Source: Myxococcota bacterium (lineage in GTDB: Bacteria; Myxococcota_A; SURF-8; G963677705). Taken from it: a DNA stretch of 64,000 nt. Positions 14,934 through 53,827 of the stretch are shown here, piece by piece; position 1 is the first letter of the stretch, and each line of letters starts with the position of its first letter. The notes below the pieces were generated by a model that saw only the letters and a list, made by a program, of their open reading frames with translations, made no database searches and had not been told where the DNA came from. A program made the translations under genes and the position numbers. The DNA lies in NCBI GenBank assembly GCA_963677705.1, contig OY782497.1:1900774-1964773 (forward strand), written 5' to 3'.

Positions 14934-14948
14934 GTACTTAAGGAAGTG

Positions 14949-22812: not shown

Positions 22813-25800
22813 TTAGGGACGCGGAGAGGTTTTGCCGCAGCGGAAACCAATGTAATCGGCTCCCAAGCCCGGCAGCATGTAACCGCGATAGAAGGCGCGG
22901 GTTTCCGACAAGCCGGAGTTCCACGCACCACCACGGAAGACCTTCCGGTCGCAACCTTCCACGCAGATGGGATCACCACCGCAGCGAGTCAAACAATCCG
23001 ACTTGAGATCCAGCACCGGGTTGTCGGCAGGATCGCCGCTGATGTTGGTCGGATACGGTCCGTAGTAATCTTCCACCCACTCCGCCACGTTGCCGGCGAG
23101 GTTGTAGACCCGGACACCGTTGTAGGTGGCCGTACCATCGGAACCGCCAGAGCCATAACTGCTCACGCTTTCCGGATATCCGACGAGGTTGTTGTAGTTG
23201 AGCCTGTCGTCATCCATCGTGTCGCCCCACGGCCAATTGGTGAAGGTTCCACCGTGGATCGCCCACTCGAATTCGTGTTCCGTCAACAGACGCATCCCGT
23301 TATGGCGACAGTACTGCTTGGCCTGTTCATGGGTAACAAAGACCACCGGAGAATTGGGACTACTTGTATAGTAGTTGTTCACCTGATTGAACGGGTCTTC
23401 GTTCTCCGGGTCACCTTCACAACCAACGGCACAATAGCCACTGGTAGAGCAGAAGGTTCCGAAGCCATCACAGACCGGATCATACGGATTGCTTGCAGTA
23501 CAAGGATGCGCCAGGTCTTCGGCGAAGGCATTGGCACAGGCCCGGTATTCGCTGTTGGATACCTCTTTTTGCAGGATGTAGAAACTATCCACTGTGGCAT
23601 AGTGTTCCAATTCATCATCCTGGTGGTAGGGGTCCGTGCTTTCCGAGCCGAAGCGCTCGTCTTCCGCTCCCGGTACTACCGCAGCGCCATCCGGTGCCAT
23701 ATCCACGCGGATCTTGTAATGGTAGACACTACTCCAGGCGTTGTAACTAACGTTAGACCCGTTAAGGTTGTTGTTCTTCACCCGGATGTGGAAGTACCAC
23801 TCCCCGTTCTCGATGTTGCTATACTTGAACGACGGGTTTCCACCGTGGAGAATCAGACTTTCGGTATTCACCGATGTACCGGGGTCGCCGGTGGGGTTCT
23901 GGTCCAGTGAGAAGCTGTACCCTGCGATACGGCTGGCCACGGTACCACCACCAAGCTGGTCTTCCGCCGGAATCCAGTAGAACTGCGGATCATCGGCATC
24001 ATCGGTGGTGTCTGCGGCATCACCGGCGAAGCTGTACCAGGTATCCGAGTTCGGGTGCGTGTTGGAATAGACCACGCTTCCGTCCAAGCTGGGCGGCGTA
24101 CTGTCAATGCGGATTTCAAAATGGGTCACGTCACCCCAGGTACCAGTACCATCCTGAGCCCTTACGTTGAAGTAATTGATACCCTGAGCCAAGGCTCCCG
24201 CCGGACTGATTGTGGTTCCCGGACTAGAGTAGTCATCGCATGTTTCATCTGGATCATTGGGGTTAACCTGACTCCAGGTATAACTGTAACAGGTGATCCC
24301 TGAACCATCCGTCGCCTCATAGTTCACCGTGGCTGTGGTGGAATGAGAATACCAGTAGCCTTGGGTGGGGTGTGACGACGTCACGGTCGGTCCCGGTGGC
24401 TCCGTAGTATCAATCAGCACGCAGTAGGTTTCAATAGCGCCCCAGGTACCGGCAGCGTTTTGTCCTCTCACTCTGAGGTAGAAGTTACCGTCCGCTCCGG
24501 TATCAATGGTCAAGCTTGCCTGGTCCGTTATCGTGCTGGGAATCGCCGCTGGACTCCCACTGAAGACGTATTGCCAGTGCTCAATGGGGGCCGTATCAGT
24601 CAACGTCCAGGTGAACGTCGCCTCACGATCCGCAACCGGCTGCGGACACTGCACATGATGGGGAGCATCCCCCGCAATCACCGGCGCACCGGGGGCGGTG
24701 GCATCCAAGTTGAATTGGAAGTGAGCAACTTCACCCCAGATTCCCGCACCGTTACGGGCGCGGACATGGAACCAATGCGTCCCATCAGCCAGGTTGGATA
24801 GAGTCACACTGGCCGTATTGGTCAGGGTATCCGTTCCCGGATTGACCGTATCCGTTGCGCCCGCGCTCACTTTGTAGGCATAACGGTTACTCGCATACAA
24901 GCCGGAAATATCGCTGACCGTCCAACTGAATTGAGGGTCGTTGCTGTCATACCAGTTGCTCTGCACCGGATGGGTAGAACTACTCACCGTTGGTGCCACC
25001 GGGCCGGTGGTATCCACATTCACCTGAATGGTTTTCGTATCACCCCAGATACCGGACTGGCTCGCGGCACGGACATGGAAGTACCAAGTGCCATCGGCTT
25101 TGGCGTCCGGGCTGGTCCAGCTACGGATACTGGTGGTTTCTGCGACCTCATCCGGGATGGTTCCCGCAGCCTGATCCAGCACGTAGCTGTAACCGCCGAT
25201 ACCAGAGGTCGAGATCCCTTCGTTCCAGGCGAAGGCCGGGAAGCTGTCATTGTACCACAGGACCGGGTCGGGATGGCTGGTTGACCAGACATCATTCACA
25301 CCCCAGGTCGGCGCGGAAGTATCGATATGCACCAGGAAGGTGGCCGTCGGTCCCCAGAGATTGGCCCCGTTCATCGCCTTGATGCTGAAGCAATATTCAC
25401 CATCCGGCTGAGTGAGGAAATCAACCGAGGTAGACGCGCCCTCTCCCGTGGTGTCCGGCGTCTGACAGGTTGTACCGGAAACCCAGGTGTAGCTGTATTC
25501 AATCACACCGGAGGTATCAGTCAGACCGGACCATTCCAGGTGAACATCCTGGGCGTTGTACCAGTTGCTCTGCACGGGATGGCTACTGGAGATCACTGTC
25601 GGCATACCCGGAGCGGTCCCATCCACACGCAGGCGGTAGTGAGCCGGATCACCCCACATCCCGGCCTTGTTCAAGGCGCGGATATGGAACCAATGTTCAC
25701 CATCCGACAGACCGGTCAGGTATTCCGAAGTCACCGTGGAACCACCATCCATGCTTTCATCCGGCGTGGTGGAAGAATTGGTGTCCAACAGCCAACTATA

Positions 25801-28800
25801 GCCGTCAATCCCACTGTAGGAACTGGCAGACCACATCAGCGTACTGTCACGATGCTCGTACCACTGATCCTGGTCCACATGCGGCGTTGCGGTAAGGCTG
25901 TCTATCGTCGGCGGTTCACCATCGATACGGATGATCCATTCCGCACCCGGCCCGGCCTGCCAACCGTGCTGATCCCGCGTGGTGACACGCCAGTACCAGG
26001 TACCGTTGGGGATATCGAAGGCCGGTGTCCAGGACGCTGACGTCACCCAGCCGCTCTGGTAATGGGTTCCGTTCCCACCCGGCGAGCTGTAGACATCGAA
26101 GTAATAGTATTCGGTATCCCCGCTGTCCACCGTGTTGGATGCGATGTTGGCGTCGGTCACCGGCGTCACCGCCAAAGTGGGCCGGAAGCTGGTAGCCCAG
26201 GAACCCGAAACCGGGCTCAGGTTGTTCGCCACGGGGATTTGGATATTGGTATGGAAGTTCAGATCATAGTCTGCCCAGGCCGTGGTTCCGTTGAAGTCCG
26301 AGGCAGCGGCGGCGATGTCATTGTCTTGAATGTCGCCATAGCTACCCGGCGTCAAGGTCCAGCGGAAGAGCAGGGTCAGTTGGTTGCCGTTATCCGCATA
26401 GCTGGAGGTCGGCGCACTGAGCATCACGCGGTCATTGCCGTTGTCTCCGTTTTCACTAAAGCCGACATCACGCACCCACTTGAAGCTACCGCGAGCATTC
26501 TGCCAGGTTGCACTGTCTTGACTGATACGGATCTCAACATCCTGGATGTTGGTGGAGCCGTTCAAGTCGCTGACCACCACCGTGGCTTCCTGATAGTCAA
26601 TGCCGTCCACCTTGACCACGGTCTTGCTCACCGTGACATCGTCAATTACCGGCGCGGCGTTGATCTTCACTTTGTAGTGAGCGGCACTACCCCACACGCC
26701 GATACCGTTTTGACACTTGACATGGAAGTAATAGATGCCCGGAGCCAGGTCGTTGTAGGTTTCCGAGGTAGACCCATCGGGTGTACTCAGACTGGCCGGG
26801 GTCGTCGTCGCGGTTTGATCCAGCGTGAAGCTATAGCCGTTCACACCGGAGGGCGAACTACAGGACCAGGTGAATTCCGGATCGTTATCATCATACCACT
26901 GGGATTGATCCGGGTGGGTGGGACTGGCAACCACCGGGATGGTTCCGGTATCGATACGGATCTCAAAGTGAGCCGTCGGTCCCCAGGCACCGCTGGGTTG
27001 CGCCGAGTTCAAGCTGCGCACATGCAGGTACCAGGTGCCGTTGGCCACATCCGTATAGCTGGCAGAGGTCACATTGCCCATGCTGCTGGCAGCCGGTTCA
27101 TCCGTGGCGTTCTGGGTGAAGGTCCAACTATACGCAGCCACACCGGACTGAGTCAGCGCATCCGTTCCCGGCGTCCAACTAAAGACCGGATCGTTGTGGT
27201 TACGCCAGCTTGGTGGCGCGGGATGAGTGGAACTGCTGATTACCGGCGCGTCCGGCATATTATCAATGCGCGTGCGGTAATGGGCCGTCGGTCCCCACAC
27301 ACCGGAATTGCTTTGGGCGCGAACGTGGAGCCACCACTCACCGTCAGCCAGAATTCCGCTGGTGTAGCTGGTCACATTGCCTTCGGTGGTTTCATCCGCC
27401 GCTGTGCCGGAACTCTGATCCATATGGAAGCTGTAACCAGCCACACCGGAAACGCTGTTTGCCGTCCAGGTGAATTGCGGCTCGTTGTTCACATACCAGT
27501 TGGCCTGGTTGCCGTGGGTCGCGCTTGTGACCACCGGCGCTTCCGGACCGCTGTCGATATGCACCACAAAGTGCTTCGCCGTTCCCCACATACCGGCTTC
27601 GTTCTTGGCACGGATGTGGAAGTACCAAACCCCATCTGAGGTAGCAGACAAAGATACCGTGGTGTTCACGCCCTGGCTAGTGGTGTTCGGTGTCGTTGTG
27701 GGAGACGTGTTGAACACGTAGCTATACCCGGCAATCGGTGCGGTATCCGTTGCGGACCATTCAAAGTCCACATTCCAGGAGGAATACCAGGTACCGATAT
27801 CCGGATGGCTGGAAGAACCGAGGGTTGCGATCACCGGCGGCGTGCGATCCATGTTCATCTGGAAGTGACTGGTGTCGCTCCAGGTGCCATCGCCGTTCAC
27901 CGCACGGATATGGAAGTACCAGATGCCATCGGTCAAGCTGTCAAAGGCGTGTTCCACACCGGCTTCCATGTTGGTTTCAGTGGGAATGGTGGCGGGAGCC
28001 TGATCCAGCACCCAGCTATAACCATCCACTCCGGTTTCCGCATCGGTGAACTGCCAACTCACGGTACCGGCATTGTAGGGATACCACCTGGCTTCATCCG
28101 CGTGTGGAGTTGCCGTCAAGTCAACCAAGACCGGCGGGGTCATATCCGGGCTGCGCATTTCCACTGCCGTGGTCATGTGGGCCGAGACGTTGCCCGCAGC
28201 ATCCACCGCATCCACCTTGTAGTACCAGGTTTCGCTGTTCCCCACCGTATGGGTGTAGGAGGTGGTCGCCAAGCCATCAGCCAGACGGGAACCGTACATT
28301 TCCACTTCGATAAGGTTGGCCTGATCGTTGTAGCTGTTGATCTGCGTTTCCGTCGAACCATCGAAGCCGATACGGATCTGCTTGGAGGTAACCGGCGTGA
28401 AAATCATGCTGGAATAGCCGTGATCCGCCCTGAACCCACGCAGTTCCGTAAAAGAACCGCCACTGTATATCTCAATATTCTGACGGCGATAGATGCGATC
28501 ATCGCTATCCAGGAAGTGCAAGCTCACTTTGGAGATGTCAGCCTCACTGACCCTGTAGAATGTTACATACTTCAAACTTGACGGGCTGTCACCGGTCCAG
28601 AAGGAGGTGATGCCATGATCGCCATCATAGGCACGGGCGAAGTTGGAACCCCAACCACTACCGCTTGTCACCAGGTTGTCCAGGTCCGAGGCCGTCTGGC
28701 TGGCATACACGTTGTAGCTGACGGCATCGGGAACCGGATCCCAACTTAGGCTGATCTGTCCCGCGGTGGCGCTGGCGGCCAGGTTACCCGGCACGGACGG

Positions 28801-31800
28801 CGGATCACGATCCGGAATGGTCACCGCGTTGACATCGGTAAGGTACGCGCTGGTGTGACCCAGGTTATCGCGAGCCTGAATACGGAAGCGGTAGGTCGTT
28901 CCCACATTCAGGGAGGGATAATAATATTCGGTTGCGGAGCCATCCACGATCTGGCGTTGATAGGCCGCATCCCAGGTACCGTCGTCATCAACATCCACAT
29001 CCAGGAAGATGTCGTTCACACCGGCGTAGGCATCGGTGCAAGCCGGCCAACGCAGGGTGACACCGAAACCGCTGTCACTGTGATGGTTGGTCAGCGGACC
29101 GGCACAATCCGGACCCTGGGTATCCATCGTGATGTGGTCGATCGCCGCTGCGGCAGTGGTGTTACCACCGGCATCGCGGAACCAGGCATAGACCGTCTTC
29201 ACGCCATCGCCGCCACCGGCCAGGGTGTGCGCCATCGTTGATGTGCCACCGGCTCCGAAGTCCTGCCAGTCTCCGCCGCTGGGTGCGCTAGAATCGTTGC
29301 GCACGGCAACCTGGAGGTTCTGCCAGGGATCGTTGGCCGTCAAGGTCAAGGTGACGTTCAGGCTGGTCGTGTAGGGATCGTTGTTGTTAATGACCACCGT
29401 GGCATCGCTTGGCGGAGTGGTATCCACGATCACCTGACCGATCTCGCTTTGAGGACCGAGGTTATTCACGTTATCGTAGGGAACCACCTTGATGTACCAG
29501 GTGCCATCGGCCAGAGCCGCCGTGTGCTGATAGAAGGCATTGTCGCTCCAACCATCAAACACGCCGCTGCCGAAGCCCGCATCCTGGGACCAGAACACAT
29601 GGTAGGCCTGAGCATCACGCACTCCGGAGAGAGCATCCGTCGTGGCCGTCCAGGTCCAGGTTGGTGTGTTGTCCGCCGTGCGCATGGTTCCGGTCGTCGG
29701 GGCGGGAGCCACCTGGTCCGGACCGGTCTGATCGACGTAGGTGAAGTCCGAGGCAAAGAGGGAAATGTTACCCGCGTTGTCACGGACCCAACCATACACG
29801 GTACGCGCTCCCTCACCACCGATCAGAGTGTGGTTCAACAGAGAGCTTCCATCCCACGAACTGAAGGCACCGTAACCCGGCTCCGTCGGATCATTGGACA
29901 GATAGACGTAGTCGCATCCCTGACCGGAAACCGTCAGGCCCACGGTCACGTTGCTGGACGCATTGTAGTTGTTGCCGTTGTAATAATCCGGCGAAATGGC
30001 CAGGGTATCAATGATGCAACCGGAGATGTCGATTTCCACCTCACCATAGGTGCTGCTCATCATCGTATTGCCCACGGCATCGTAAGCTTCCACCTTCAGG
30101 TACCAGGTCCCTTCATCCAGGTCATCCAGGTGGGTGAAGCTGTTGGTATCCGTCCACGCGGAGTAGGTTTCACCCAGCGGGGATTGCGACCAGTAGACAC
30201 GGTAGACGTTGGACAATGGCATACCGCTTTCGGCATCCGTAGAGGGCGTCCAGGTCCAGGACGGTGTCTGATCGTTGGTCGGAGACATCCCCGTTACCGC
30301 GATACCGGACGGTTCCGTCGGCGGCGTTTTGTCGATCCAGAACGGACCGAGGGTCGCCGTCTCATCCGACCAGTTCCCGGCTTCATCCACGGCACGCAAG
30401 TGCGCGTAGTAGTTCTGGCCGGTGGTGGCAAATGTACAATTGGTCGTAATCGCCGAGTCGTTGAGATCCAACTCGGTGCGGGTGATCTCTCCGGCGTCCT
30501 CGTTGCAGACCACGGCGTAACCCAGGAGTCCGGCGTGTGCATCCACCTTGGTGGCGCGACGGAGGCTCAGGTTATCCAGAAGCAACTCGGTTCCGTTGGA
30601 GAACCCGGCATTGTTGAATACACGGAAGTAGAAGCTCGGATCGCCATAGCCATTCTGCACCGTGACATAACCGGTGTAGTGACCATGAGGCAGGCCCAGG
30701 GAGCAATCCAGGTTGTCACTGCGGGTCGGGCGGCTTTCCGCTTCGTTGGCCATCACACCATCGGCGATGAGATCCGGATGCCCATCAACCGAACCGTCAC
30801 GGAAGAGCAGTTTCCATCCCGCGCCTTCCGGCGGGGTATCCATGCAGTAGTAGTCGAACTCGAAGACATAGCTATCACCGGCTTTCAGGTTTTCAACCTG
30901 CTTGACCATCATCAGGTGTTCTTCACCACCGTCAGCATTGAGATACCAGCTATGACCCCCGAAGAAGCCATCGGTGACACTATCCATTCCCACGGCATCG
31001 TTACGGAACGAGCAGAAGCCGTCGGCGCAGTTGGTGTCTTCGGTCCAGCCTTCGGCCATCGCCCCGACACCCTTCTCAAAGCGTCCGTTCTCAAAGCCGT
31101 TGGCGCTGTTGCCGTCAAGATCCGTCGGCGTGGCAGCAACGTAGTAGGAGGTTTCCGCATCAACGGCTGGATTCCAACCGAAGATCACGTTGGTGTCACC
31201 ACTCCACGCGCCGGTCAGATGACCGCTGGTGGTCGCCAGATCCGTTGCCAGACCCGGAGCGCGATGGTCGTCATAGGTCAGGTCGCTGGTCCAGGTGCGG
31301 TTAGCCACGGCAATCTTGAGGTTGCGGGCATCACCCGTACCGGCACTGTAGGTCGCACCAGCCAGGGTATAGGATGTTTCCGCACCGGTACGTTCATCAT
31401 ACAATTCGCCGATCAGGCTGTCGTCGATGAAGCAACGCACGCGGTTACCTTGAGCCTCAAAGCGCATGGAATAAGAAGCCTGCCCGCTTACCAGAGACTT
31501 GAAGCGCTTCAGCGCATCGGACACGCCGGACGGCGTTTCTTCCAAGCCGGTATCCTGGTACATCAGATAGGCCATGCCGGAGTCCTGATCCACCAGGCAG
31601 GAGTAATGGGCGCCGGTGCTGTCTTGACGAAGCGAGAAGCCCAGGCTTCCGCCGTTGATGTTCAGTACGCTTTCCAAGGCTACATCCGGGCTTTCCACCG
31701 TGGTCGTGAATCCAGGCATGGGTTCATACAGACGGAAGTCCACACCGGTATCGTTGCGGCCATCGCCGCCACCAAGCCATTCCATCTGCGCCAAACGATC

Positions 31801-34800
31801 GGCGACCACATCCATGTGGCTTTGCACCACAAGGTGATTGGCGGGCCAACCGAACAGAGCCGAGGCGAAGCCGCTGCTGGCGGTGGGATTGTAGTACGCC
31901 GCCGCCGGGCTGTTCACCACCAGAGCCAAACCTTTGGAGACGAAGGAGATAACAACCTTACCTTCCACCGCTTCATAGGTGTTGACCAGGGTACCATCGG
32001 CCTGGTAGAGGCTGACCGTCGCGTCCTCACGCATCGTGGCCAAGGAAACCCATTCGGCATCCATCGGCAGCATGAAGGTGGAGGACAAGAGGTTGCTCGG
32101 AATGGCCGGAGCCATTTCCGGCGTTTCAAACTCAGAGACGCGAGTCATACCGAAGGCGCTGAAGATCGCACCATCGCGACCGGCCAGACGCAGGGCGTAG
32201 CCGTTACCATACATATCCCCCATGCCTGTGGCCATGCTGACCACCTCACCGGCCACACAGTTCTGGCTGGCGACTTCTGTACCCGAAAGAGCATAGGCGG
32301 CAACCACACCGTCTTTCAGACAGACGGCGCGGACGGCATCCCCTTCAACGGTGAGGAAGTCACGACCGGCAGGAGCCACCGGGCTGCGACTGGAGCCGTC
32401 TTCCGTGCCGGTATAAACCAAGAGCGGCATGTCGGACTTGACGATGATCGCGCTTTCACGGGTCGGAGGAGAACCGGCATTGATGGTCAGACGCAGGTGA
32501 CGATCCGCACCCAGGGCGTGGACTTCATCCGTCGCGATACGACCCATGCCTTCTACGTAACGATCAATCCGAATCTCTTCATCCTCGGCTTGCGGTCCAA
32601 GAGCGAGAATGTCAATCACCGTCGGCAGACCCATCGGGCGAGCATCGGCAGGCACCGCAAAGCGGGTTCCGGCGAAGCTGTCCGGGATGAGTTCCCCTTC
32701 GGTCACACCGCTGTCGGAGTGCAGCGCGAAGGGAGCCGAACCGGCAATGCGTGTCCAGGGGTTCGGTCCAGCGTTCAAGGTCGCGTTTTCACCGCGGTTG
32801 ATCATGAACTGCTGTTCCCCGTTGGAGACGGTGTTGTTGTCCGCCAAGGACACCACCTGAATGGACGAACCGCTGCTCAGATCCTGACTGACATAGTACA
32901 TGGAATAGCCACCATCCAGCGGATAGAGCGCGCCGGTGGTCTCTCCCATGTCCAGATCATAAGCCAGGCTGGCCAGAGCTTCCGAGCCGTTCCAGGATTG
33001 AGACTCAATGTAGCCATCGCTTTGCAGCGGCAGGCTGCGGTCATACCCGGTGGCGGCCAGGACCGGACCGAAGTCGGTGGGTTCCAAGCCCACCAGATAG
33101 GCTTTCACTTGGAAGCGGTACAACTGGTTGTCATCCAAGCCGGTGACCAGGAAGCCTTCGTTATCTGCTCCGTTCCACTCGTCACGGGAACGCCAGTCTT
33201 CCACCGCAGTGTTGAAGGTGCCCGTGAAGTAGTTGAGATACAGACCGGAATCGACATCCTGAATGGCATACGTCACGGCGTTGCTGTTGCCATCGGCACG
33301 GTGGATAAACAGGCGAATTGCCGCTTCACCATCACCGAGGATGGTACCGTCACCGGTGTAAACCGCGATGGGTTCAAACGGTGTAGAGACGGTTTGGACA
33401 TCCACCTGACCAATGCCGCTTTCCACGGTATTGTTGGCCATGTCGCGAGCCATGACTTTGGCGTACCAGATTCCCGTGGTCAACTCCGCCGAGTGGGTGT
33501 ATTCGTTGGAAAGCAGATCCACCGAATAGACATCCGTGATGAAGTTGGAATCTTTGGACCAGAACAGGGTGTAGGGACGAACGGAGTTCAAACCGCTGTC
33601 CGCATCGCCGGAAGCCGTCCAACTCCAATGCGGAGTCTTGCTTCCCGTCTGGGCTTCGTCCGGTACCGGAGTCCCCGGAGCCGGGAAGGGAGCGGTGATA
33701 TCAAGGAAGGTGCCATCGGAAAGCATTTCGCTTTCGTTACCCGCTTCATCACGGAACACGGCGTACACCGTCTTGGGTCCATTGCCACCCACAAAGGTAT
33801 AGCTGGCCGTCGTGGCAAAGGCTTGATAGGCACCCAGCGTTTCACCGAACCTCATTTCCGTGTTAGATTCATCCACCGTAAGATACAAAGTCACAGTCTG
33901 CTGATTGACGTAATCCGGACCCGGAGCCACGGAAGAGGCAACCACAATGCTTCCGAACGGAGGACGGGTATCCACGGTGAAGCTGGTTTCCAGGCTGGTG
34001 TTGTTGCCCGCACCATCATAGGCGGTGACACGGACATACCATAGGCCATCAGCCAGCGCCGTGGGGAAGGTGAAGCTGGTTTCCGTGGTGTACTGGTTGT
34101 TCGGCGTCGTGGTCAGCTCTTCAACCGTTTGCGCCCAGCGCACGCGGTAGGTGTTGGTCGGACGCGGTCCGCAGAGCGCATCCACCATCGCCGGCCAACT
34201 GATTGTCGGAGTGCTGTCATTGGTCGGATCGACCAAGGCGATGGGACCGGCAAAGGTAGGAGCCTGACGGTCAAGAATGATCGTATCACTCACCGAAGCC
34301 GATTCGTTCCCCGCCAGATCGTTCATTTTGAAGAAGACCGTGCGGGTGCCGTCCTGATCGTCCAGGTAGACGCTGCTCATGATCGTCGAGGCTGTACGCC
34401 AAGACTGCCAGGAGGCATCATCTTCCGGGCTGTAGGCCATCCGGTAGGGAGAACCGGTGTAGGTCTGGCGGCTGACATTAGACAACACCGCCGTGCAGGC
34501 TGCCCCATTGTTCAATTCGTAGGAAGTAACCACCGGCGCAGTCGTATCCACCAGCACAGTACCCGTCGAAGACCAGTCACTGACGTTACCCACTTTGTCT
34601 ACGGCACGCACGCGCAGGTAATGGGTGACACCCGGTTCAGGCAGACTGTTCAGAGCCGTGGCATGGGTGAAGCTTCCGTTCTGGGTTTCCGGGCTGGGAG
34701 CATTCACAAAGATCTGCGTTGTACCGCCACCTTGCGGCCACCATTCCACTTCATAGGCATTGGTTTCCGCCAAGCCGCTTCCGGCATCATTGGCGAAGGA

Positions 34801-37800
34801 CCAACTCCAGGTCGGCGTGGTATCGTTGGTCGCAGCCACTCCGCCCACGCTGGGGGTTCCCGGCGCGGCAGGCGGCAAGGTATCAACGATGATGCTATCG
34901 GAGTTAACCGGTCCGGTGTTCAACACCGTATCGCGGCAGCTCACATACACCTCTCGCTCGCCATCCCCGGCATCCAAGTCGAAGTTGGGAACCGATGCGG
35001 CGAAGGGCACCCAGGTGCAAACCCCCATATCCGAAGGTGTCAGCACGCACATTTCGTGGGCGTCGTTTTCCGTATCGGTAATGGTCAGGGTCACGGTGCT
35101 TCCAGCGACATAGGCATCGCCGTTGTTGATTTCCACCGTGCAGTCCGGGGCGTTGGCATCCAGGTAGATGCTATCACAGATTTCTGCGCTGATGTTGCCA
35201 CCACCGTCACGGAAGCGGGCGCAGATCGTCTTCTCGCCTTCCGTATCGTTGGGCGGATTGAAGTTCCAGGTCAGGCTACTCTGGAAGGGCTGCCAGGTGG
35301 TCGTATCTTCGGGAACCGTGTTGTAGTCCAGGGACATTTCCACGGGGTTCCAGCTATCCGTCGCAGCAAGGCTCACTTCCACCGGCACCAGCGCGGTCAC
35401 CGCCGCACCACCGGCGATGGTCAAAGCAAGGCTTTCCGGTGGCGTGGTATCCAGAATAATGGTGTCCGTTACCGCCGCACTCTCAGTCAATCCGGCATCG
35501 CGGAACTTCACGTATACGGTTTTCACACCGTCCGTAACATGCTCCAGCGTCCAGGACAGGGACGCGGCGAAAGGCTGCCAACTCCCGTAGGTGCTGCCAT
35601 CATTGGACAAGGCCATCTCAATGGGCACCCAGGTGTCACTGGCGCTCAAGGCCAGGCTGACATCTTCGCTGTTGGTCCGCGTCGCACCGGCATTGATCAC
35701 CACCGAACCGGACGGACCGGTGCGGTCGAGGAAGATCTGCTGGCTGACGGAACTGGAAATGTTGCCGCCACCATCACGGAAACGCATGTAAAGGGTCTTG
35801 ATTCCGTCCGTGGTGGAAAGCAGGTCGTAGGTCAGGGTCATGCTGTCCGAGTAGTTCGTCCAGTTGGTCGGCGAACTGGATTCACCGAAGGCCACTTGCA
35901 GCGGCGTCCAGGGGTCCACCGCCGCCGGAGTCAAACTCAAGGTGGTGGACGCGGTGCGGGCATCTCCACCGTTGATGGCGAAGGAACCGACCGGGCCGGT
36001 CATGTCCACGGTGATCGAGTCCGTCAACGGGGTAATGGTAATGTTTCCACCACCGTCACGGAACTGCGCGTAGACCGTGCGTTCGCCCTCGCCGGGCAGC
36101 ATGGTGAAGGGATGCACCGGATCAATGGGCGCCCAGGCTTCCCAACTTGCTGCATCAAAGTTGGTGCTGTTGGAGAAGCGCACGGAGAGCGGTCCCCAGG
36201 CGTCCGTCATATCCACGTCCACATCCACGGTGCTGGAAGCACTGTAGGTTTCGTGGGCCGGGAGCTGATTTCTCAACACGATGGAACCCGTCGGGCCTTC
36301 ATCATCATAGGTGATGCAATCGCTGGCCTCACTCATGTTCCCCGCAACATCGAAGAACTGGGCGTAGACACAATGCTCGGCGTTGGAACCATCCAAGGTC
36401 ATGTAGTAGGTCGAGGCGTAGGCTTCTTCAATGCTCGCCGGAGGATTGACGAAGTCCACCTTCATCGTCTGGACATCGGTGACATCCATCGTCACGGTGA
36501 TGTTCACATCGTTGGTGAAGGCATCGTTGTCGTTGACAACAAAGGAGTTCACCACCGGAGGCTGGCTATCCAGCGTCCAGGGACCGTAATGGTAAGGTTC
36601 GCTCCAGTTACCGGCATTATCCGCCAGACGGACGTGGGCATACCATTCACCATCAGCCAGCGATTCACTGACGATGGCTACGTCACCCGCGCTTGCCGCA
36701 AAGTCGATATCCGGGGTGGCGTTGCGCGTATCGGCAACCTGATCCCAGACCACATCGGCACCGGCAACACCGGTATAGATTTGTTCCATACCCATCTGAA
36801 CCAGAGAGACATCATCCACATAATGCTGTCCCGTACTGGCCGTGGTTCCGATGCTCACTTTCAGGCGATCCCCTGCGGAGTTGTCCACCGCGATCGGCGC
36901 GGAGCGATAGAACAACCAGTTACTCCCGGTGTCCGTGCTTTCATCCATCACCGTCTGCACGAAGGTGAATCCGTTGTAGAGGTCTACCTTGACGGTGAAG
37001 TTTCCACCGGTGGTGCTGTTATGACGGAAGCTCAGCTGGTAGGAATCCATTCCGGCTTCATCGTCAGGTTCAATCATCACCGTCTGACTCATCATCCGTG
37101 CGGTGGCCGTGGTCTTGTTGAAGCGACCATAACGTTCACCGAGGTAGGGAACCACAACGTCCCCGCCCTGCTCGGCCACATAGCCTTCACCGGTGAAGGA
37201 CCAAATGCCCACCGCACCTTGCTCGAAGCCCGGATTCTGCAACAGGTTGCCACGGTTTCCGGCCAAGTCCTGCATATCCGGTGCGAAGTGGAAGGTTTCC
37301 GCCGGATCATCCACACCCAAGGTCAGGCTGATGATCGGGTTGTTGGTCATCCCCACCACAGGAGAGATGGTTTCCGTTCCCACCTCTGGCGGGACGAAGT
37401 CCACCTGGTCCACCGCAACCTTGATACCCGCACCACTGTAGAGCGGAGCCACGCGGAAGTGGTCGAAGCGGGCATAGGGTTGGTTGTTGGCCGAGATCAA
37501 CCCGGCTTTACCGGCTTGGATCGGCGCGGAGATATCCACGACATCAAAGACCAGCGCATCGTTGACGAAGGCGCGGATCTGGCTGCCTCGCACGATGACT
37601 TTCAAGCGGTACCAGGTATTCTGGGCGCTGGTGAAGTCCGCTTCATGCCAGGCGGTTCCCGTTCCGGCAAACTGGGTTGCGCTCTTGTTCAAGAAGGCTT
37701 TACCCACTTCCGGACGCAGGGTGAAAGAATAGTATTCGCTGTCATCCACATACCGGAACAACAGACCGAAGGCATCGTCATCCAGGTTGCTGGCTTCCAC

Positions 37801-40800
37801 GCTGACCACCATATCATGGGTGGACATGCCATCGTACACCAGACCGGTGATGGCTCCGGCGGTCAGTTCGTCGGTCAGGATCTGGTTTCCGCTGGCACTG
37901 ACGATACCCCAGGTTTCATCTTGCAGCACCGTGCTGTAATGCACCAGATGATCGGACTCGAAGTCATCTTCATAACCACCCATCGGCTGGCTTTCTCCAC
38001 CACCGGTGAGTTGGTAGCTGACCACATCCGCCTGGTTCATCGCGATCAGGGCTTTTTCCAGGGTTTCATCTTTGGCCAGAAGCACGGCATCCATACGCAT
38101 CGGTTCCTGGCCCTTCAGGGTCAGGGTGTGCCAGCCTTCGGTCAAGGTCACGCCGCTGTAGGCGTTCCCCCAACCCCAACTGTCATAGCCATCTTCAGAG
38201 ACGAAGACCGCCGGGACATCGCTGTTGGAATCAAAGGCGTAGAAGAAATCGTTCTCGTTGCTGTTTCTGGCATTGCCGCGCAGGTAGAGGTAATACAGCC
38301 CGTCTTCGGGAATGTAGAACTCCATGCTGGCCTGGCTGGAGGCATCGCTGAAGGCCAGGTATTGTCCGGCCAGACTGTCTTCGCTGTGGGTCAGGGTGGC
38401 GCCACTGATCGAAGAGAAGCGCTCCACCTCGAAGAACAACTCTCCGGCAGCCAGTTTCATTTCCACCGGATCGGAACTTCCGGGGTTGCCATCCACCGTC
38501 AGGCTAAAGGGCACATCATGGCCAACCATGACTTCCGGTTCGTTGCGGTCCTTGGTAACCAAGGTTGCCGCCGGGCTGTAATCGGATTCACTGGTTCCCA
38601 GCTTGCTCTTGGTACGGATCTCAATCAGGCTGGCACCGGACAAGGCGGTTCCCACCACGCCGTTCGTACCACCCCACTGGGAGTAGAGGCGCCAGACCGG
38701 AGTATCCGAGGTGAAGGCTCCGGCGGTGGTCATGTATTTGCCGCCGTTGGCATTGGTCCAGATGGCGTAGGTGGTGGTGCCGGGGTTCGCGCCGGTTTCC
38801 ACCTTCACGTTAACCCGCCCACGATGACTGGTCAGCGGCACGTCATCCATCGCCGTGACAACAGGGGCAGGCGGCATCTGAGCGGTAACCACTTCTACGA
38901 TACCGTTCTCACTGGTCAAGGAAGCATTGTTTAACGCATCGTAAGCCACCACGCGGAAGTACCAGGTACCACCACTCAAGGGCGTTACGTGAGTATAGGT
39001 GTTGCTGGTCGTGAAGGCCGTACCGGCAATGCCCGTCGGCGTGGTTCCCCACATCACCGCATAAGTCTGCGAAGTACGCAGGCCGGAGTGGGCATCCGTG
39101 CTGGGAGCCCAGGTCCAGGTGGGATACTGGTTATCCGTCGGCGAACCCGTGGAAGGCACCGGCGTACCGGGCTTGGTGGGTGCCTGATGGTCAGACTTGA
39201 TGGTAAAGACGGAGACCGCAGACTCACCACCGGCATCCTGAGTCAGCACACGGAAGTAGTAGGTGCCGTTCCCCAGAGGACTCAAATCTACCGAGCGATC
39301 CGCGTCTTCCGTGGAAGGCGCACAGCCGTTGGCGGTATCCATACAATACAGTTGAGTACCAACGCTCGGACCAGCCGTGTTGGTCCAGGAGCAGACGGTT
39401 CCCGTCGCGGAACCCCAGGTATTATGGGTGAAGTCCGTACAGGAGATCACCGGTTGAGCCGGAGCGCTCAGGTCGACACGGAAGCGGAACACGCCGATGG
39501 GGGACGCGCCACCCTGGTCAATGTTGACCACACGCAGGTAGTGGTTGCCTTCGGTCAAGCCGGAAACCAGCGTGCTGGGCGAAGCCACCACATTGGACGG
39601 CGTACAGAGGTTGGTGGAATCCAGGCAATAGCGATACTGGCCTGGGCTCGGTCCCGTCGTATCCGTCCAGTTACAGGTACTGGCTGTCGCGTTGGTATAG
39701 ACGTTATCCGTATGGTTGGAGCAGGTTACCACCGGTCGAGCCGGAGCACCGCCATCAATGTGATACGGACCGAAATGCAGGCTATCGCTCCAGTTGCCCG
39801 CCACATCGCGAGCCTTGACGTGGGCATACCAGATACCGTCGGCCAGATCGCTGCTGGTCATCATCGCTTCCGCGGTGTCCAGATTGGGACCGGCATTGTC
39901 ACTATCCGCGACATGATCCCACAAGACATCATACCCGGCGATGACGCTATCCATCACCGCAGTCTGCACACGGCGCACGCGCAGTGCGTCAATCATCATG
40001 CTCTGATCGCCGGTCGGCTTATTGCTGTAGATGCGGAACATCTGAGAGCTGTTCGGACCGGTCTGGAAGTGGGCCACCAGGTGACCGCGTTCACCGGAAG
40101 AGCAGACGAAACTTCCCGTGCTGCCTTTATCCACCACGTTGCCATCATCCAGATAGGCTTTGGCCATACCGTAGCGATCATCTCCCGTCGCGTTACGGAA
40201 GAAGATTTGCCAATGCTGGCCGCTGGAGGCGTCCGGGCAGTAGTAATCCATTTCCAGGATCAGGTTTTCATTGGCCACACCCTCCAGAGATTGAGACAAG
40301 AGGTTGACCGCTTTGGAAACTTTACCCGTCATATTCCAGGAGTAACCACCAAACTGGTTGGTGTTCCCACTGATCCGTTCACCACACCCCAAGGTGGAGC
40401 AACTGGTCGTATAGAAGAAGTGGGTGGCATCAGCGCCATCGCCGTATTCAAAGTCGCCGTTCTTCAGGATGTTGCTCTCATTGTCCTGGGCGTCGATCAT
40501 CGCTCCCTGGAAGTACCAGGTGGTCGCGTTGCCGTTGGGCACATTCCAGGCCAGTTCCACGCTGCGATCCGCAGACCAGTCGGCATCTCCGGTGAGGTGG
40601 GATTCGCTGGCGAAAGTCGGAACATCCGGGGCGGCCTGATCTTGCGCGCCGTAATCGGAAACGGCTTCGCCGGACTGACGCACGCGGATGGACACGTTGT
40701 CCCAACGCACCAAGCCTTTGCGGCTGAACAAACCGATGGGGCTGCCCACACCGAAGTCAACATTTTCCAGACTACCCACCAATTGACCGTTGATGTAGCC

Positions 40801-43800
40801 TCGGACGCTCATCCCGGAAAGCACCAGTTTCAGGTGAATCCAGCTATTCTGGGTCACTGTGGGTTCTTCACGAACGTCCAATTCCTTGAAGGGGTTGGCG
40901 TCGGTATAGCTGTACAGACCACTCTTACCATCCAGATAGCTGATTCCCGATGTAGCCAGCGCTTTGAAGTTCCGATACGTTACCGTACCAAAGGTCAAGC
41001 CGAAGGCTTCTCCGTTGTTGGTCGCGTAGGCATCCGCTTCAAAGATCACGCTCCCCCCGCTGGGCACCGTATCGTTGGTGACAAACACCTCGTTCCCATC
41101 GGTTACCAGACGACCACCAACCAGGTTGGCCCCGGCGGCTCCGATAATCACATTCCAGGAGTCATCCAGTTCGGCAGCCTCGAAGCGATCCGTGAAACCA
41201 CCGGCAGGCACATAGGAACCCAGAAGGTCGTCTTCAGCACGAGACAGAAGCATCGCTTCCGGTAAGGTGCGATACACCGGGCTCGTCTGACCGTTCTCGT
41301 GGCCAATCAGGTATTGACCGTTGCTGGTCATGCAGGAAACACCCAGGCTCCCGGCGGCCCCGCTGGCCGCGTGAGTACCACGGGCGGTTTCAGACCATTC
41401 CCCCGTAGAGGCCGACCAGTCACGCAGGTTGTAATAAGTAATGGGATAGTTCGCCGCGCCGTTACCACCGACGAAAAGCAGACCGTTCTGAACCGCCACA
41501 CCGGCAGCAGTCAACGTGGCACTGGTTTCAAAGTATCCCAAGGCACTGAAGCCGGAGATGGGATCGCCGGTCAGTCTGTAGCGATAGACCCTCGGCTCGC
41601 CAGCCGCAACGCAATAGAGATAGCGTCCATCGGCAGCCAGACCGTGGCAAGCGGCCATGCCGCCACCCAGCTCCGTTTTCACCCACGTTGCGCCATCATC
41701 GGTCACGGTGAACAGGTTCAGGTTACCCGACGCGCCATCCTGGGTGAAGAAGACGTTGTTGCGAGCATCATAGGCCAAGCCCTGATCTGCATCGGAACCC
41801 AGAGCAATGCTACGCACATGACGCCAATCCGAAGTGTGCTGGCAAACTTCACCGGCATTCAGACTGAAAATGTAATCCTGGCTGAAGCCCGTATCCCGCG
41901 AGGAGGCAAAGGCCATATCGCCAGACATCGGAGCATCACCATCGTAGGTATAAGCACCGGTCAACACCTGGGCGGTGTTGTTGCTCCAGGAGATATCCAC
42001 CTGGTTGTTGGCCGTATCGGCGCTGACCATCATCGCCGGAGCCAGAGGCGCAGTGCGGTCGAAGGAACGCACGCTGGCCGGGTCGCTGGCATCGGAAATG
42101 TCTCCTTCAAACCCGGCGAACACGACGAAGCGATGAAGCTCCGCACTACCGACACGGTTGATCTGGGTGTACCCATTCAAACCCTGCCAGGCGTTGAGCG
42201 TATGCCAGTCCGGAGAGCCGGAGCCGATCATGCCCGTTGTGGCATTGACATAGGTCGATGTGGTTTCATCATAGATGGCGTATTCGGTGCTGCTGCTGTT
42301 GGTTCCAGGATTCAGCACGATACGATACGCGCCTTCATCCACACCCAACGGCAAGGAATTAACCGCATACACGACCGGTTGATCAGGCTTGGAAACCTGA
42401 ATCACTTCCACCTGCCCGTTGGCCCAATCGCTGGCCCACCCGGCATTGTCATAAGCACGAACGCGGAAGTACCAGTTGCCACCGGTCAAGTCTACGGTGT
42501 GGGTGTAGGTGGTGGAGGAACTGAACGCGGACTGAATACCCGTCGCCCAACTTGCATCCAAGGTCCACTCGACTTCATAGGTATTGCTGCTGCGCAGACC
42601 GCTGGTCGCATCACTGGCCGCCGTCCAGGTCCAGAGAGGACGCTGGTTACCGGTCGGTGTGGAAGTCATCGGGATGCCCGGTGCTTCCGGCTTGATGCGG
42701 TCCAAAACAATGTCATCGGTAAGAACGGTGGCGGAAATATTTTCGCCGCCATCTCGGAACCAGGCCGTAACAGTCTTCAGGCCATCAGAACCTTCCAGTG
42801 CGAAGGTTCCACCATAAGGCAGATTTTGCCAGTTTCCGGTCTGGCTGCCATCATTACTCAGGGACATGGCCACGGGTTGCCAGGCGTCGGTGGCATCGGC
42901 ATCCACCGTTACGTTGAGGCTTTGAGTGTATTGAGCCCCACCCGCCAGGGAGAAGCTTGGAGCCGTTGGGCCGGTGCGGTCCAGAATGATGTCATCCGCA
43001 TTGGAGACTTCACCCATATCCGTCCAGTTACCCACGGAATCACGCAGACGGACGTAAACCGTGCGGGAACCGTCACTTCCACCGGACAAGGTCCAGGCGT
43101 AGGGATTCTGTGCGGGATCACTGGGGTTGAAGTCTTGAGACAAGCCATCGACTTCGCCGTCAGAGATCGGCGCATCGTTTTTCACCGCAATCTTCACAAC
43201 ATCGTTGGTTGCTCCGACATTCAGGTTGACGTTCAGGCTGTTGGTGCGATCTTCATCATAGTTGATAACCATGTTGGTCCCGGTCGGAGCCCCACAATCC
43301 AGGTTGTAGGTACCGGTCGTCGACCAATCACTCCAATGCCCGGCTTTATCCTGTGCGCGGGCCTGGAAATACCAGGTTTCTTCATCCCCGGTGGAAATAT
43401 CCGAGGTGTGCAGGTAGTTGGCCGCAGCGCTGGAATCCGTCAAGACTCCGGTGCTAAACCCGCTATTCTGACTCCAGCGGACTTCGTAGGGTTGGGTTTC
43501 ATGCAGGCCGACGCCCTGAGCGGCATCGGAACTAGCCGACCAGGTCCAGTAGGGTTGACGGTTGCAGGCTGGTGTAAGAGTCATTGGTCGACCCGGCACC
43601 GAAGGCGGCGTCGTGTCGTAGATGATGGTATCGGAAACCATCACGCTCTCGTTACCCAGAGGATCACGGAACCAGACATAGACGGCGCGGACTCCATCCC
43701 CGGAATTCAAGGTCCAGTTGTTGTGAATCGTCGAATAGGGCCGCCATACACATTCCGGGAGGCTACCGGGACTGGTGGCATTACAGATACGCATTTCGGA

Positions 43801-46800
43801 CACGCTGGTTTCGTTGTCTACAGCGGAAAGTACCAGATCCACGCTGTCCGAGGTAGTCCATTCATCGCCGCTGTTGATGCTTACCGTCCCATTGACCGGG
43901 GAGGCCGTATCCAGACGAATCTGGCCAGTGGAGCTCCAGGCGGAGACGTTGCCCATCGCATCGTATGCACGGACGTGTACGTAGTAGGTCGTGTCGTTGG
44001 CCCAGGTGTCGCTCACCGTCCAGGCATCACTGTTAACATACAAAGTGGTTGCCCCGACAAACGTATTCACCGTGGCCCACTCAACCTGATAGCTGTTACC
44101 ACCTCGAATACCACTACCCGGCGCGGGGTCGGAACTGGCCGACCAGGTCCAGCCGGGGTGACTTGTGCCGGTCCAGTCGGTCGAGCCGTCGTTCCAGCTT
44201 GCCGTCTGCGGCATCCCCGGCGTAGTGGGGGATGTGGTATCCAACTTGATGGTGTCCGAGTTGGCCGGGCTTTGCACGTTGTTCAACGCATCATAGCAAC
44301 GCACATAGACGGTCTTGACACCGTCACTACCGGTCAATCCCCATGATGGAATGCCCGTATGAGTACCATTGATTGTGTACGTAGACCACGTTGTCTGGTC
44401 GTTGCTTACATCCACCGTATTCGCATCGCCACCGGCATCGGTTACGGTCAAATTTACCAAAGTGCTTCCCGTCCATTCATTCCCACTGTTGATCTGTACC
44501 GTACACTCTGGCGGTTCGGTATCAAGAATGATGGTGTCGCTGTAAGGCGATCCAACCGGGCGGGCGTTGCCACCTGCATCACGGGTCCAGTAGTAAATGG
44601 TTTTCAGACCATTGGATGAGGTCATCGTGAAGTTGCGGGTGAAGTATTCCACGGTCTGAGAGTTGCCGTCGTTCCAGGCTTCCCAAGTACAACCGCTACG
44701 ATCCGCATTGGCGCAAACCATGTACTCATACGGTGCCCAGGCACTGGGGGCATCACTCATCTGGAGTTTGATGGAAACCACCGGGTTGCTGGTGGATGCC
44801 GCTCCGTTGTTGATGACAATGCTACCAACCGGTGCAACCTGATCCAACATGATGGTGTCCGTTACCGACGTCACGTTGATTCCGTTTCCGGTTCCGGCAC
44901 AGGTGCTGCTATCCACACAACCGGCACCGTCGGCGAACTGCATACTCACCGAACGGGTTCCACTCACCGAGTTCAGGACATGAGCCGTCGAGCTACCCGT
45001 CACGGTATGCCAGGCACTCCAGGAAGAAGCTCCATCGTTGGCCACACGGTAGTAAATCGGTGTCCAGGGATCGCTGGCGCTATAATTCAACGTTACCGCC
45101 GTGGTGTTGGTATGAGTCGCACCGTTGTTGATGGACATCGTCACCGTCGGGCCACCGACATCCAAAATCACGCTGTCGGCATTGTAGACAGGGCTGGAGG
45201 TGGGAGACGGGTTGGTATTGTTTCCACCATCGCGGAACTGCACATAAACCCACTTCGTTCCAGGCGTATTAATCAAAGCCCAGTTGGAAACCGTCGGGGT
45301 GAAGTTGGTCCATCCCGTTCCGGAACTGAAGTTGGCATAGTTAGAAACCCGCATCTGCAAGGGCTCGCTGGGCGGGAAGTTCCACGGATCGCTGGCCGTG
45401 ATTTTCAGGTTGACGATATTGGTTGAAGTCGCGGTCAAGGTCGTGCCGGAACCATCCACGATGGTTACACCCGTTCCGGTGGGAGCGGCGGTATCCAGAA
45501 TCACCTGATCCGTCGCCGCCGTCGTGGTTCCGTTACCACCGGCATCCGTAGCCCAAACATAGACGTTCTTCGTTCCGTCCCCGCTACCCAGATCCCAGAC
45601 AATAGGTGTGGTAGTACCGGTCAAAGTGTAGTTGTTACAACTGGAGTCGGTCTGGTTATTCACTGCACAGACACGAGCCGTAACCGGGGTCCAGGCTTCG
45701 TTGGCATAGGAAATCTTCAGTTCAATGTTTCGTGTCGCCGAGCGCTTGGTGCCTCCAGCCGCAGAGGCTGTGAACGCCGCCGCGACACTCTGAGGCGCGT
45801 GCTGATCTACCACAATGCTATCGGATGCGGCGGAAGATTGTAGACTGGTTGCATCTTCAACCTGCAAATAGACAGTGCGGGTACAGCCGGGGCTGGCACA
45901 AGCGGAAAGGCTGATTGAGCCGGAAAGCGTCCAGTTGGGCACCCCAGGCGTTGCCGTTGAAACCGTGGTCCAGGTGGTCGGCCAACTGGCATCGGTATCC
46001 CTGCGCAGACGGTATTTGATCGGCGAGGTATATTCCGTCACCGAAGCCGTCCAGGAAACCGTGGTACTGTTGGTTCTGGCCGCATCATTGTTCAGCTTGA
46101 AGGCGGTAATCACCGGGGCGCTGGTGTCCACATAGGTACAGGAACTCAGCACCGCCGCCGTGGTATTACCACCCCCATCGCGGAATTTGGCATACACGCA
46201 ACGGTTGCCGTTACCTGACGTCAGGGTCCAGAAATGACTCTGCCAATAATCCAGAGCTTTCCAGCCGGTCGTAGAGAAACTGGTGGAACTATTGCTCAGG
46301 TTGACTTCAACATTCGTCCAGGTATCGCTAGCCGCACAAGAAACGGTTACGTTGCTGCTGTTGGTGTACGGACGCTGATCGATGGACATGCTGGTCGAGG
46401 TCGGAGCCGTGGTATCCACACGGAAAGCAAACCAAGAGGACCAACCGGAGACATTGGCCGGGCTGGCTTTGTCCACAGCTTGCACACGAATGTTGTAATT
46501 GCCATCAGCCAGGTCTGAGGAGAAGGTATAAGCCTGCGCGGAGCCGTTGTTGTAGCTCACCGTGCTGGGGCAGTTGAAAATCGTTCCGCTGGCATTCTGA
46601 TATTGACATTTGTAGTAGCTGGTACCGGAACCCGTCACCGGGGAGGCCGTCGCGCCTGGATCGTTTCCACCACTGAAATACACGGTGGGACGTTTGGTCG
46701 CATAGGTCAGGCGGCTTTGAGCCGGACTGTTGGTGATAATTGCAAAAGGCGTAGCCGGAGTGGCCGGAGGCGTATTGTCGATACGGATACGGCGCTTTTC

Positions 46801-49374: not shown

Positions 49375-49604
49375 GACGAACTCCCCATACCGTGTATAAA
49401 AGGTCTTTGATTCCTTACTTGTATAGTCTGGCTTCCGATCTCGTGAACGAAGGAAAGCTCCCCCGTTGAACGTGTCGCCTTGCCCATGCGGCGTTGACTT
49501 CCACGGACCTTGCGGCAAAAGCATCTGCCGTTTTTCTTTGTGTTGTCCGTTCATGGCCGTTTTCCTTTCGTTCACAAGATCGTTCTTTCTCGTCGATTCC
49601 ATCT

Positions 49605-53768: not shown

Positions 53769-53827
53769 GATCCGGCTCCCGCCTGAAAAGTTGGTTCCAC
53801 AGGGTTTGTGATGGAACATCATCGTCT

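Follow-up and report, generated by a model that had tools for sequence, protein, structure and literature searches.

We analysed a 64,000-nucleotide stretch from the genome assembly of a Myxococcota bacterium (GenBank GCA_963677705.1, contig OY782497.1, positions 1,900,774 to 1,964,773; this whole stretch is called the window below, and nucleotide positions refer to it). On its minus strand, at 22813..49614, lies a giant open reading frame (ORF) that encodes 8933 amino acids (aa) when read from the first possible start. A first-pass annotation, made from the letters of the sequence, had assigned window positions 23695-28137 to residues 7160-8640 of this giant protein and had described there a twelve-copy array of a divergent module resembling FN3 domains, with one orphan copy near the N-terminus. 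The assignment is correct, and the plus-strand reading of the same interval, which is interrupted by stop codons throughout, could be discarded. With a hidden Markov model (HMM) built from the 12 units (the orphan left out) and run back on the giant protein we recovered exactly 12 strong copies, at 75.9-125.6 bits (i-Evalue 1e-25 to 5e-41), arranged head-to-tail over residues 7157-8642 (window 23689-28146). The units are 99-108 aa long, unit 12 being the exception (Table 1). The insertion of about 247 aa reported after copy 5 is indeed found at that position, but it measures 242 aa and is a conserved two-domain cassette rather than a random insertion. The orphan was also recovered by the HMM that had excluded it, and it bears a complete SSHSSDTTWY lead-in; it is not conserved in the other syntenic giants described below. 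All remaining FN3-like units of the giant score at most 35 bits with the array HMM, so that the scores within the protein are bimodal.

The module has the consensus S-S-T-H-P-x4-W-Y...SGI-x-GYSY-x-LD...DG-x-WYFHVRA-x-D-x-AGNWG...H-x4-ID-x3-P. AlphaFold2, given the 13 units as its alignment, predicted for one unit a confident FN3-type beta-sandwich (predicted local distance difference test, pLDDT, 94; predicted template modelling score, pTM, 0.85). The module qualifies as an FN3 fold, defined as a seven-stranded sandwich of FN3 topology with a Trp in strand B and an F-strand Tyr/aromatic corner. Foldseek with the AlphaFold2 model gave a generic FN3/PKD picture (template modelling scores 0.55-0.66), and a profile of the 13 units compared with solved structures matched the FN3 domains of titin, DCC and FNDC3 together with the Y_Y_Y domain of BT4663. 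A self-crosslinking Ig domain (isopeptide or Thr-Gln ester) was considered and rejected: the alignment columns, as distinct from the 3-D geometry, hold no conserved Lys, and for an ester cross-link the Gln of LDQ occurs in no more than six of the 13 units and in less than 50% family-wide.

The first-pass annotation had proposed a comparison with PF00041 and with the PKD and Big families, and a match to a well-known family at ordinary scores would have reduced the module to plain FN3. Across Pfam and NCBIfam, no family matched single units at such scores. Pfam fn3 (PF00041) matched none of the 13 units at E<=1 and nothing in the whole giant at E<=0.01, while Y_Y_Y (best E 1e-4), Ig_J and Big_13 (best E 0.019) each matched four of the 13. 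From the PKD models (PF00801, PF18911, PF22352) only K319L-like_PKD appeared, at E 0.012-0.025 and 16 bits against a gathering threshold of 27; the WDFGDG-type PKD motif was not found in the unit alignment, and the structural likeness to PKD is generic. NCBIfam scans of the units returned nothing relevant or above cut-off. At the level of a family consensus, built from 449 family-wide units, two families matched marginally: Big_13 at 30.1 bits over residues 23-101 (gathering threshold 27) and Y_Y_Y at 28.6 bits over residues 43-99 only (gathering threshold 26.6). The consensus scored 15.4 bits (E 0.021) with fn3, below its gathering threshold of 25. Residues 1-22 of the consensus, which make up the S-S-T-H-P-x4-W-Y lead-in, are covered by no Pfam model.

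A word-index profile search with the unit alignment gave one weak match only; we therefore searched 1.84 billion cluster representatives exhaustively with the HMM. This search, which had been suggested in the first pass, revealed a broad multi-phylum distribution, with 20,370 representatives matching at E<=1e-3, 7,596 at <=1e-10 and 914 at <=1e-30, counts that should be read as upper bounds, since arrays of generic FN3 domains gather score as well. From the top 150 proteins we took 449 full-length units; the scores are again bimodal, and the units yield the consensus P.aP.vsSsTHPd...WY.nndp.f.Wt..d.SGI.GYSy.lDq.p.T.Pdt...laDG.WYFHVRA.D.AGnWg.t.Hy.vrIDtt.P., in which S11, H14, W20, G72, H77 and D98 are each conserved in at least 90% of units. 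As members of the subfamily we counted full-length matches (profile positions 1-102, lead-in included) of at least 50 bits; the 12 units and the orphan, the 449 units, and units in 54 genome loci belong to it by this measure. These 54 loci, all in metagenome-assembled genomes, came from a scan of species-representative genomes with unit 8. The full module with its lead-in was detected by six-frame HMM search in Chloroflexota, Actinomycetota, Myxococcales, Omnitrophota, Planctomycetales, Patescibacteria and one Thermoplasmata archaeon, and a variant without the STHP...WY lead-in in Armatimonadota, WS1 and Zipacnadia. The loci with the lead-in-less variant (L034, L038, L041-L048, L051-L053) keep GYSYVLDQ and the F-strand core, score 72-82 bits and have about three units each. 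Eight of the top matches (P0002-P0005, P0007, P0011, P0018 and P0024) are unnamed or annotated as 'hypothetical protein'. The partner domains in matching proteins are those typical of surface proteins, namely CHU_C or FlgD_ig tails of the type IX secretion system (T9SS), dockerin, PKD and SdrD_B. Four matching proteins of about 1850-2150 aa (P0010, P0016, P0021 and P0028) carry 9-12 units beginning at residue ~460-570, and three of them (P0016, P0021 and P0028) are ~1850 aa long with the array starting at residue 463-470. The N-terminus of all four resembles a HicB antitoxin (...CPxLPGCxxQGxTxxEA...), which is either an odd fusion or a gene-call artefact.

The layout of the array is kept in distant homologues. 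A 7853-aa protein truncated at its 5' end (P0011) is co-linear with giant residues 2612-8931 at 29% identity over ~7090 columns (2229 bits), and in Myxococcales bacterium SURF_8 a 10,470-aa giant keeps this co-linearity over residues 5642-8648, at 28.6% identity. Both present five units, a homologue of the cassette and then seven units. The same array order was found in P0018, in P0055 and in the N-truncated P0069 and P0039, and the fragment P0024 consists of five units and the cassette. An FGE-sulfatase-type C-terminus follows the array in P0011, P0018, P0055, P0069 and P0039; the SURF_8 segment (L045) ends ~380 aa before the end of the gene, so that its terminal domain falls outside the segment. 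The order of five units, cassette, seven units and FGE domain is seen in at least seven proteins, at about 29-43% identity. Counterparts of the cassette occupy the same array position in P0011, P0018, P0024, P0055, P0069, P0039 and SURF_8 (28.7-46.9% identical), directly before the seven-unit block in P0069 and P0039 and after unit 5 in the other five; over most of its length the cassette is 37-43% identical in P0018, P0024, P0011, P0055 and P0069. Pfam and NCBIfam scans of the cassette gave no match, and its second domain is weakly FN3-like (GTWYWRVTTRD).

The individual units also keep their places. For 234 of 386 unit queries the best cross-protein match was the unit at the same ordinal position, where 37.6 were expected; the comparisons, made among seven proteins, are not mutually independent, and the effect is very large. 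Since both the layout and this positional orthology are shared at ~29% identity, we take the insertion to be a conserved cassette and the 12-unit count to predate the divergence of these proteins. On the same sequence comparisons, the array, the cassette and the FGE domain appear to form a super-module that is conserved at the C-terminus of a family of giant proteins secreted through Sec.

Within the window giant the units are diverged. They had been judged ~30-40% identical; the measured pairwise identities of the 12 units span the wider range of 18-44%, with a mean of 33%, and the orphan is on average 29% identical to the array units. The WYFHVRA-N-AG-WG core, which had been called invariant, is a strong consensus, but H15, G74 and W89 are the only positions that never vary among the 13 units. 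Tandem Repeats Finder, run on the whole gene, reported no DNA repeat with a period near 300. Together with the mean identity and with the layout and positional orthology kept in giants of ~29% identity, this bears out the view that the module is old and not an assembly duplication, whereas its description as 'expanded' does not hold, for the array shows a frozen layout and no dynamic expansion. An ancient origin accounts for the low identity between units. This low identity would in addition protect the array against misfolding between domains and against recombinational changes in copy number; the ~33% found here agrees with what is known of titin-type arrays, where low identity limits such misfolding.

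Table 1. Features of the giant protein and of its operon partners (window coordinates)
Feature	Residues of the giant	Window position	Strand	Remarks
Probable signal peptide	81-126	49237..49374	minus	MNGQ...RRWIGLALLALVVGMFSQTALAQ; read from the translation
Orphan module copy	842-950	46765..47091	minus	50.9 bits, E 9e-18
Unit 1	7157-7260	27835..28146	minus	116.7 bits; AlphaFold2 model pLDDT 94
Unit 2	7256-7357	27544..27849	minus	123.3 bits
Unit 3	7354-7454	27253..27555	minus	125.2 bits
Unit 4	7451-7556	26947..27264	minus	111.3 bits
Unit 5	7557-7655	26650..26946	minus	125.6 bits; best Pfam Y_Y_Y stretch of the giant
Cassette (242 aa)	7656-7897	25924..26649	minus	conserved; two beta-sandwich-like domains
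Unit 6	7898-8002	25609..25923	minus	123.4 bits; weak Pfam Ig_J match
Unit 7	7998-8102	25309..25623	minus	114.5 bits
Unit 8, nearest the consensus	8103-8205	25000..25308	minus	108.5 bits; 38-53% identity to units of other phyla
Unit 9	8201-8308	24691..25014	minus	112.8 bits
Unit 10, most divergent, without lead-in WY	8304-8406	24397..24705	minus	98.7 bits
Unit 11	8404-8508	24091..24405	minus	102.9 bits
Unit 12, 133 aa, two internal insertions	8510-8642	23689..24087	minus	75.9 bits
FGE-sulfatase-fold domain, C-terminal	~8655-8926	22837..23652	minus	Pfam PF03781, E 2e-25, 90 bits
PilY1-like protein, minor-pilin operon		54266..57796	minus	Pfam PF05567, E 5e-18
1405-aa Cys/Asp-rich lipoprotein-like ORF		49605..53822	minus	syntenic counterparts ~26% identity

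A sceptical reading would hold that the array consists of generic FN3, Y_Y_Y or Big_13 repeats, and that the subfamily is an artefact of an HMM trained on the paralogues of a single protein. The family consensus does reach the gathering scores of Big_13 and Y_Y_Y, the Y_Y_Y score summed over the whole giant is 61 bits (above the threshold of 26.6, and without any single significant stretch), and the fold matches are evenly spread over FN3 and PKD domains. The module is, moreover, homologous to the nine 'canonical' FN3-like units of the same giant (PxWxW...WYxxVxAYD), with an hhalign probability of 98.5% (E 2.5e-15). However, that alignment spans columns 20-103 only and leaves the STHP...WY lead-in unmatched; the canonical units have a different Pfam profile (Big_13 in six of nine, best 2e-8; fn3 in three of nine); and the scores are bimodal both within the giant and across the database matches, all of which agrees with the earlier proposal of a subfamily distinct from the canonical units. 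Nine of the 13 units lack a Y_Y_Y match at E<=1, a true Y_Y_Y domain (BT4663, 4a2l) matches the unit profile at positions 60-90 only (21.8 bits), and the full-length units that bear the lead-in, a segment outside every Pfam model, turn up 449 times among the top 150 unrelated proteins as well as in several phyla and one archaeon over the 54 loci. We thus consider it quite unlikely that the module is merely generic. Since the consensus just reaches the gathering thresholds of Big_13 and Y_Y_Y, the module is best placed, as far as its sequence tells, as a widespread uncurated subfamily inside the FN3/E-set superfamily, between Y_Y_Y and Big_13, and not as a new fold. The other doubt, that the array was created by faulty assembly or by a recent tandem duplication, draws on the general prior that repeats can be mis-assembled, and we found no specific support for it. 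It is contradicted by the divergence of the units and by the lack of a DNA tandem repeat of unit length, and the 12-unit layout is present in independent assemblies from ENA, JGI, NCBI and Logan, with the same gene also on a contig of a sister strain. We regard this explanation as refuted, and its chance of being right as negligible.

We propose that the array is a structural stalk of fixed length. This role, which we infer from the frozen layout and from FN3 topology reasoning, seems to us the probable one, with considerable room for doubt. The 14 beta-sandwich domains (12 units and the two domains of the cassette) would form an extended, position-specific stalk of roughly 50 nm, at ~3.5-4 nm per FN3 domain, linking the conserved FGE-like terminal domain to the long and variable N-terminal remainder. 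Several conserved elements would lie at the poles of the domain: the lead-in (AB), D46, P53 and D54 in the CC' loop, D71-G72 in the EF loop, D98 at the end of the G strand, and the BC and FG loops. Being at the poles, these conserved residues would form unit-to-unit joints, and a two-unit AlphaFold2 model (pTM 0.68, pLDDT 80, from a five-sequence alignment of non-overlapping pairs) is suggestively compatible with a defined joint. Several points weigh against the stalk. The placement of the conserved residues at the poles comes from FN3 topology reasoning and not from model coordinates, and the two-unit model is only moderately confident. Within the window giant a unit often scores higher against its best paralogue than against the P0011 ortholog, so that lineage-specific drift or a degree of homogenisation has occurred. 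Finally, H14, W20/Y21, Y75, H77, R79, W87 and H92 are conserved beyond what a pure spacer would need, and such exposed-type residues could mean binding of a ligand or a metal.

This last point leads to the main alternative, in which the units are multivalent binding modules whose conserved, exposed His/aromatic patch would bind a ligand of repeating structure (such as a polysaccharide or a cell-wall polymer of prey or host), making the array an avidity device instead of a spacer. Residues atypical of generic FN3 are conserved across phyla (H14 in 94%, W20 in 90%, H77 in 90%, W87 in 71% and H92 in 69%), H77, Y75 and R79 face outward by alignment to titin FN3 F-strands, and the module occurs in many unrelated secreted proteins with dockerin, PKD, CHU_C or T9SS tails. 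As to a candidate metal site formed by a His cluster of H14, H77 and H92, strand-register reasoning does not bring H77 and H92 next to each other. Set against binding are the lack of a match to any known binding family, the location of most of the conserved residues in pole loops, where inter-domain joints would be expected, and the fixed count with position-specific orthology, a pattern more in keeping with a ruler or stalk than with binding beads that could be exchanged for one another. A role as structural linker is generally assigned to comparable domains, namely the Y_Y_Y domain of BT4663 and the FN3-like modules found in glycosidases. We therefore rate multivalent binding as a minority possibility, and the stalk remains our preferred reading.

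Outside the super-module, most of the 8933 aa of the giant receive no annotation from Pfam. The exceptions are a 3keto-disac_hyd/LamG-like segment (residues 3912-4040), Big_13 at ~5159-5216, weak summed Y_Y_Y and Ig_J signals inside the array, and the C-terminal FGE-like domain, which ends in ...IGFRCGK and whose likeness to GldK, EgtB and PvdO lies far below the cut-offs of those models in the NCBIfam scan. A second class of ~100-aa repeats, with the pattern G-x-K-x-VYV-x-FRD-x-x-GN (at least nine regular-expression matches, and no Pfam match), runs over residues ~814-6820 (window ~29150-47170). Three truncated relatives of the module (AGYDVxWD...DGxWYAHV[KR]xxDxAGNWS, 16-35 bits, without the lead-in) lie at residues 3209-3291, 4244-4353 and 6350-6432 (window 39742-39990, 36556-36885 and 30319-30567); judged by eye, at least the former two directly follow a segment resembling a jelly-roll or carbohydrate-binding module (NPGFE... 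to ...DDVSLV). At the ID-T-T-x-P junctions of the array we noticed the Bacteroidota-type O-glycosylation motif D-(S/T)-(A/I/L/V/M/T), in an organism that looks Myxococcota-like.

Two start codons are candidates for the beginning of the protein. The gene call of the sister-strain giant is 8913 aa and begins at M21 (window 49554). A second candidate, M81 (window 49374), stands immediately ahead of a stretch that is probably a Sec-type signal peptide. Both codons open with ATGAACGGxCAx (MNGQ) and both are preceded by purine runs resembling a ribosome-binding site; a normal distance of the signal peptide from the N-terminus is given by M81 only. For the head that follows (residues 81-840, window 47095-49374, ~760 aa) our homologue search detected no relatives, and the syntenic giants (L055-L059) carry heads without homology to this one. 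The first 1765 residues of the giant are 97% identical between the window and the sister strain while PilY1 is 100% identical, and this difference, together with the unrelated heads, suggests a fast-evolving head on top of a conserved stalk.

The giant is the last gene of a minus-strand cluster, the rest of which occupies window 49605-63593. Upstream of it on the same strand lie, in order, PilB, a PilT-like ATPase, PilC, a pilin, GspH/FimU-like and other minor pilins, PilX and PilY1, and between PilY1 and the giant there are a small ORF and then a 1405-aa Cys/Asp-rich lipoprotein-like ORF. The latter has a signal ending in ...LLMASAC, Cys-rich repeats of the C-x-x-D-x-D-C type and long poly-Asp/Glu tracts; it had no match in Pfam and NCBIfam scans, and NCBIfam scans of the context proteins gave nothing above cut-off. 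On the sister-strain contig (ENA ERZ21831104) PilY1 is 100% identical, the middle ORF 98% and the N-terminus of the giant 97%. Four further loci with PilY1 at 31-42% identity have the same gene order, making five loci in total (L055-L059), one of which is the SURF_8 contig, found independently through the module. The small ORF measures 142-190 aa and the Cys/Asp-rich ORF ~1000-1400 aa across the five loci, and their giants are 8913, 10,058, 10,470, 10,500 and at least 5,634 aa long. In uncultured Myxococcota-like bacteria these giants thus stand last in what appears, from the gene order, to be a minor-pilin/PilY1 operon of type IV pili. Such giants go unmentioned in a 2026 survey of the PilY1 clusters of myxobacteria (PMC13190605).

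On the other side of the giant are a second FGE-sulfatase-domain protein, a Ser/Thr kinase with PEGA domains and an 845-aa response-regulator protein (window 13296-14933, plus strand; 16327-18585, minus strand; 20007-22544, plus strand), so that the FGE fold occurs twice within 10 kb. The stretch 14001-16000, with a GC content of 0.43 compared with ~0.57 elsewhere, coincides with a 456-aa ORF (14949-16319, minus strand) without Pfam match, and may be a foreign insert.

Several known systems resemble parts of this arrangement. The Y_Y_Y family (PF07495) is exemplified by the membrane-proximal domain of BT4663, a Bacteroides hybrid two-component sensor (PDB 4A2L/4A2M). Its model has 65 positions, of which the units match ~10-62 at or below threshold, and it leaves the STHP...WY lead-in and the B strand uncovered. 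The domains of its typical context (Reg_prop beta-propellers, HisKA, response-regulator and thus signalling domains) were not found in the giant by Pfam, and in this secreted giant the module is arrayed in 12 units; the Pfam description of Y_Y_Y also permits tandem stand-alone copies. Big_13 (PF19077), a bacterial Ig-like domain of large surface proteins, shares the tandem-array and extracellular context and co-occurs with the module in homologous proteins, but it too leaves the lead-in uncovered, finds single units poorly, as given above, and matches the canonical units of the giant better. The eukaryotic FN3 arrays of titin (A-band), fibronectin and DCC/neogenin differ in that the canonical domain has neither the lead-in of the module nor its additional conserved His and Trp residues. 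Pfam fn3 fails on the module, and the module is found here in a prokaryotic secreted protein.

The extender arrays of giant adhesins (SiiE BIg, LapA/MpIBP-type RTX, Ebh and Bap) usually consist of near-identical repeats in variable copy number with Ca2+-rigidified linkers, and these adhesins use type I secretion or sortase signals. In common with them, the window array is a long run of Ig-like beta-sandwiches that would project functional domains, and it has a conserved Asp at the junctions (ID-x3-P). It is unlike them in its diverged units, in a count fixed at 12, in its positional orthology and in its terminal domain of FGE-sulfatase fold. Among Omnitrophota, giant genes adjoin loci resembling type II secretion systems (T2SS) (bioRxiv 10.1101/2023.11.21.568195). 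In both cases the giant gene lies directly downstream of a conserved T2SS/type IV pilus-like locus and a role in adhesion is proposed. The Omnitrophota giants belong to another phylum and are Archaeovorins with HEAT/TPR repeats, transmembrane regions and SecA-like domains, together with dockerin-type giants, whereas the window locus is a minor-pilin/PilY1 operon whose giant, an all-beta mosaic, bears a Sec signal peptide.

Taken by itself, the module is one more FN3/Ig-like subfamily in a familiar fold class, and its interest is modest. A curated HMM would nonetheless name a domain that is unannotated in possibly thousands of 'hypothetical' giant surface proteins of uncultured Chloroflexota, Actinomycetota, Myxococcota, candidate phyla and at least one archaeon. 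Less ordinary is the architecture, in which twelve diverged units and a cassette are kept position by position below 30% identity; bacterial adhesin repeat arrays usually vary in copy number, and conservation of this kind points to a length-critical, position-specific structure. A further-reaching scheme, which we put forward as speculation with a small chance of being right as a whole, is that the giants (~9,000-10,500 aa) are an undescribed family of tip-associated or pilus-dependent secreted adhesins, dedicated partners of a type IV pilus system of minor pilins and PilY1 in uncultured Myxococcota. The array, cassette and FGE domain would be their base and stalk and the hypervariable heads would set the target; the fixed number of position-specific units would act as a molecular ruler for reach, and the His/aromatic lead-in would make a new rigid, possibly metal-stabilised joint. 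The frozen array and its linkage to PilY1 and minor pilins make the giant a concrete, testable candidate for a new accessory component in adhesion or predation by Myxococcota through type IV pili.

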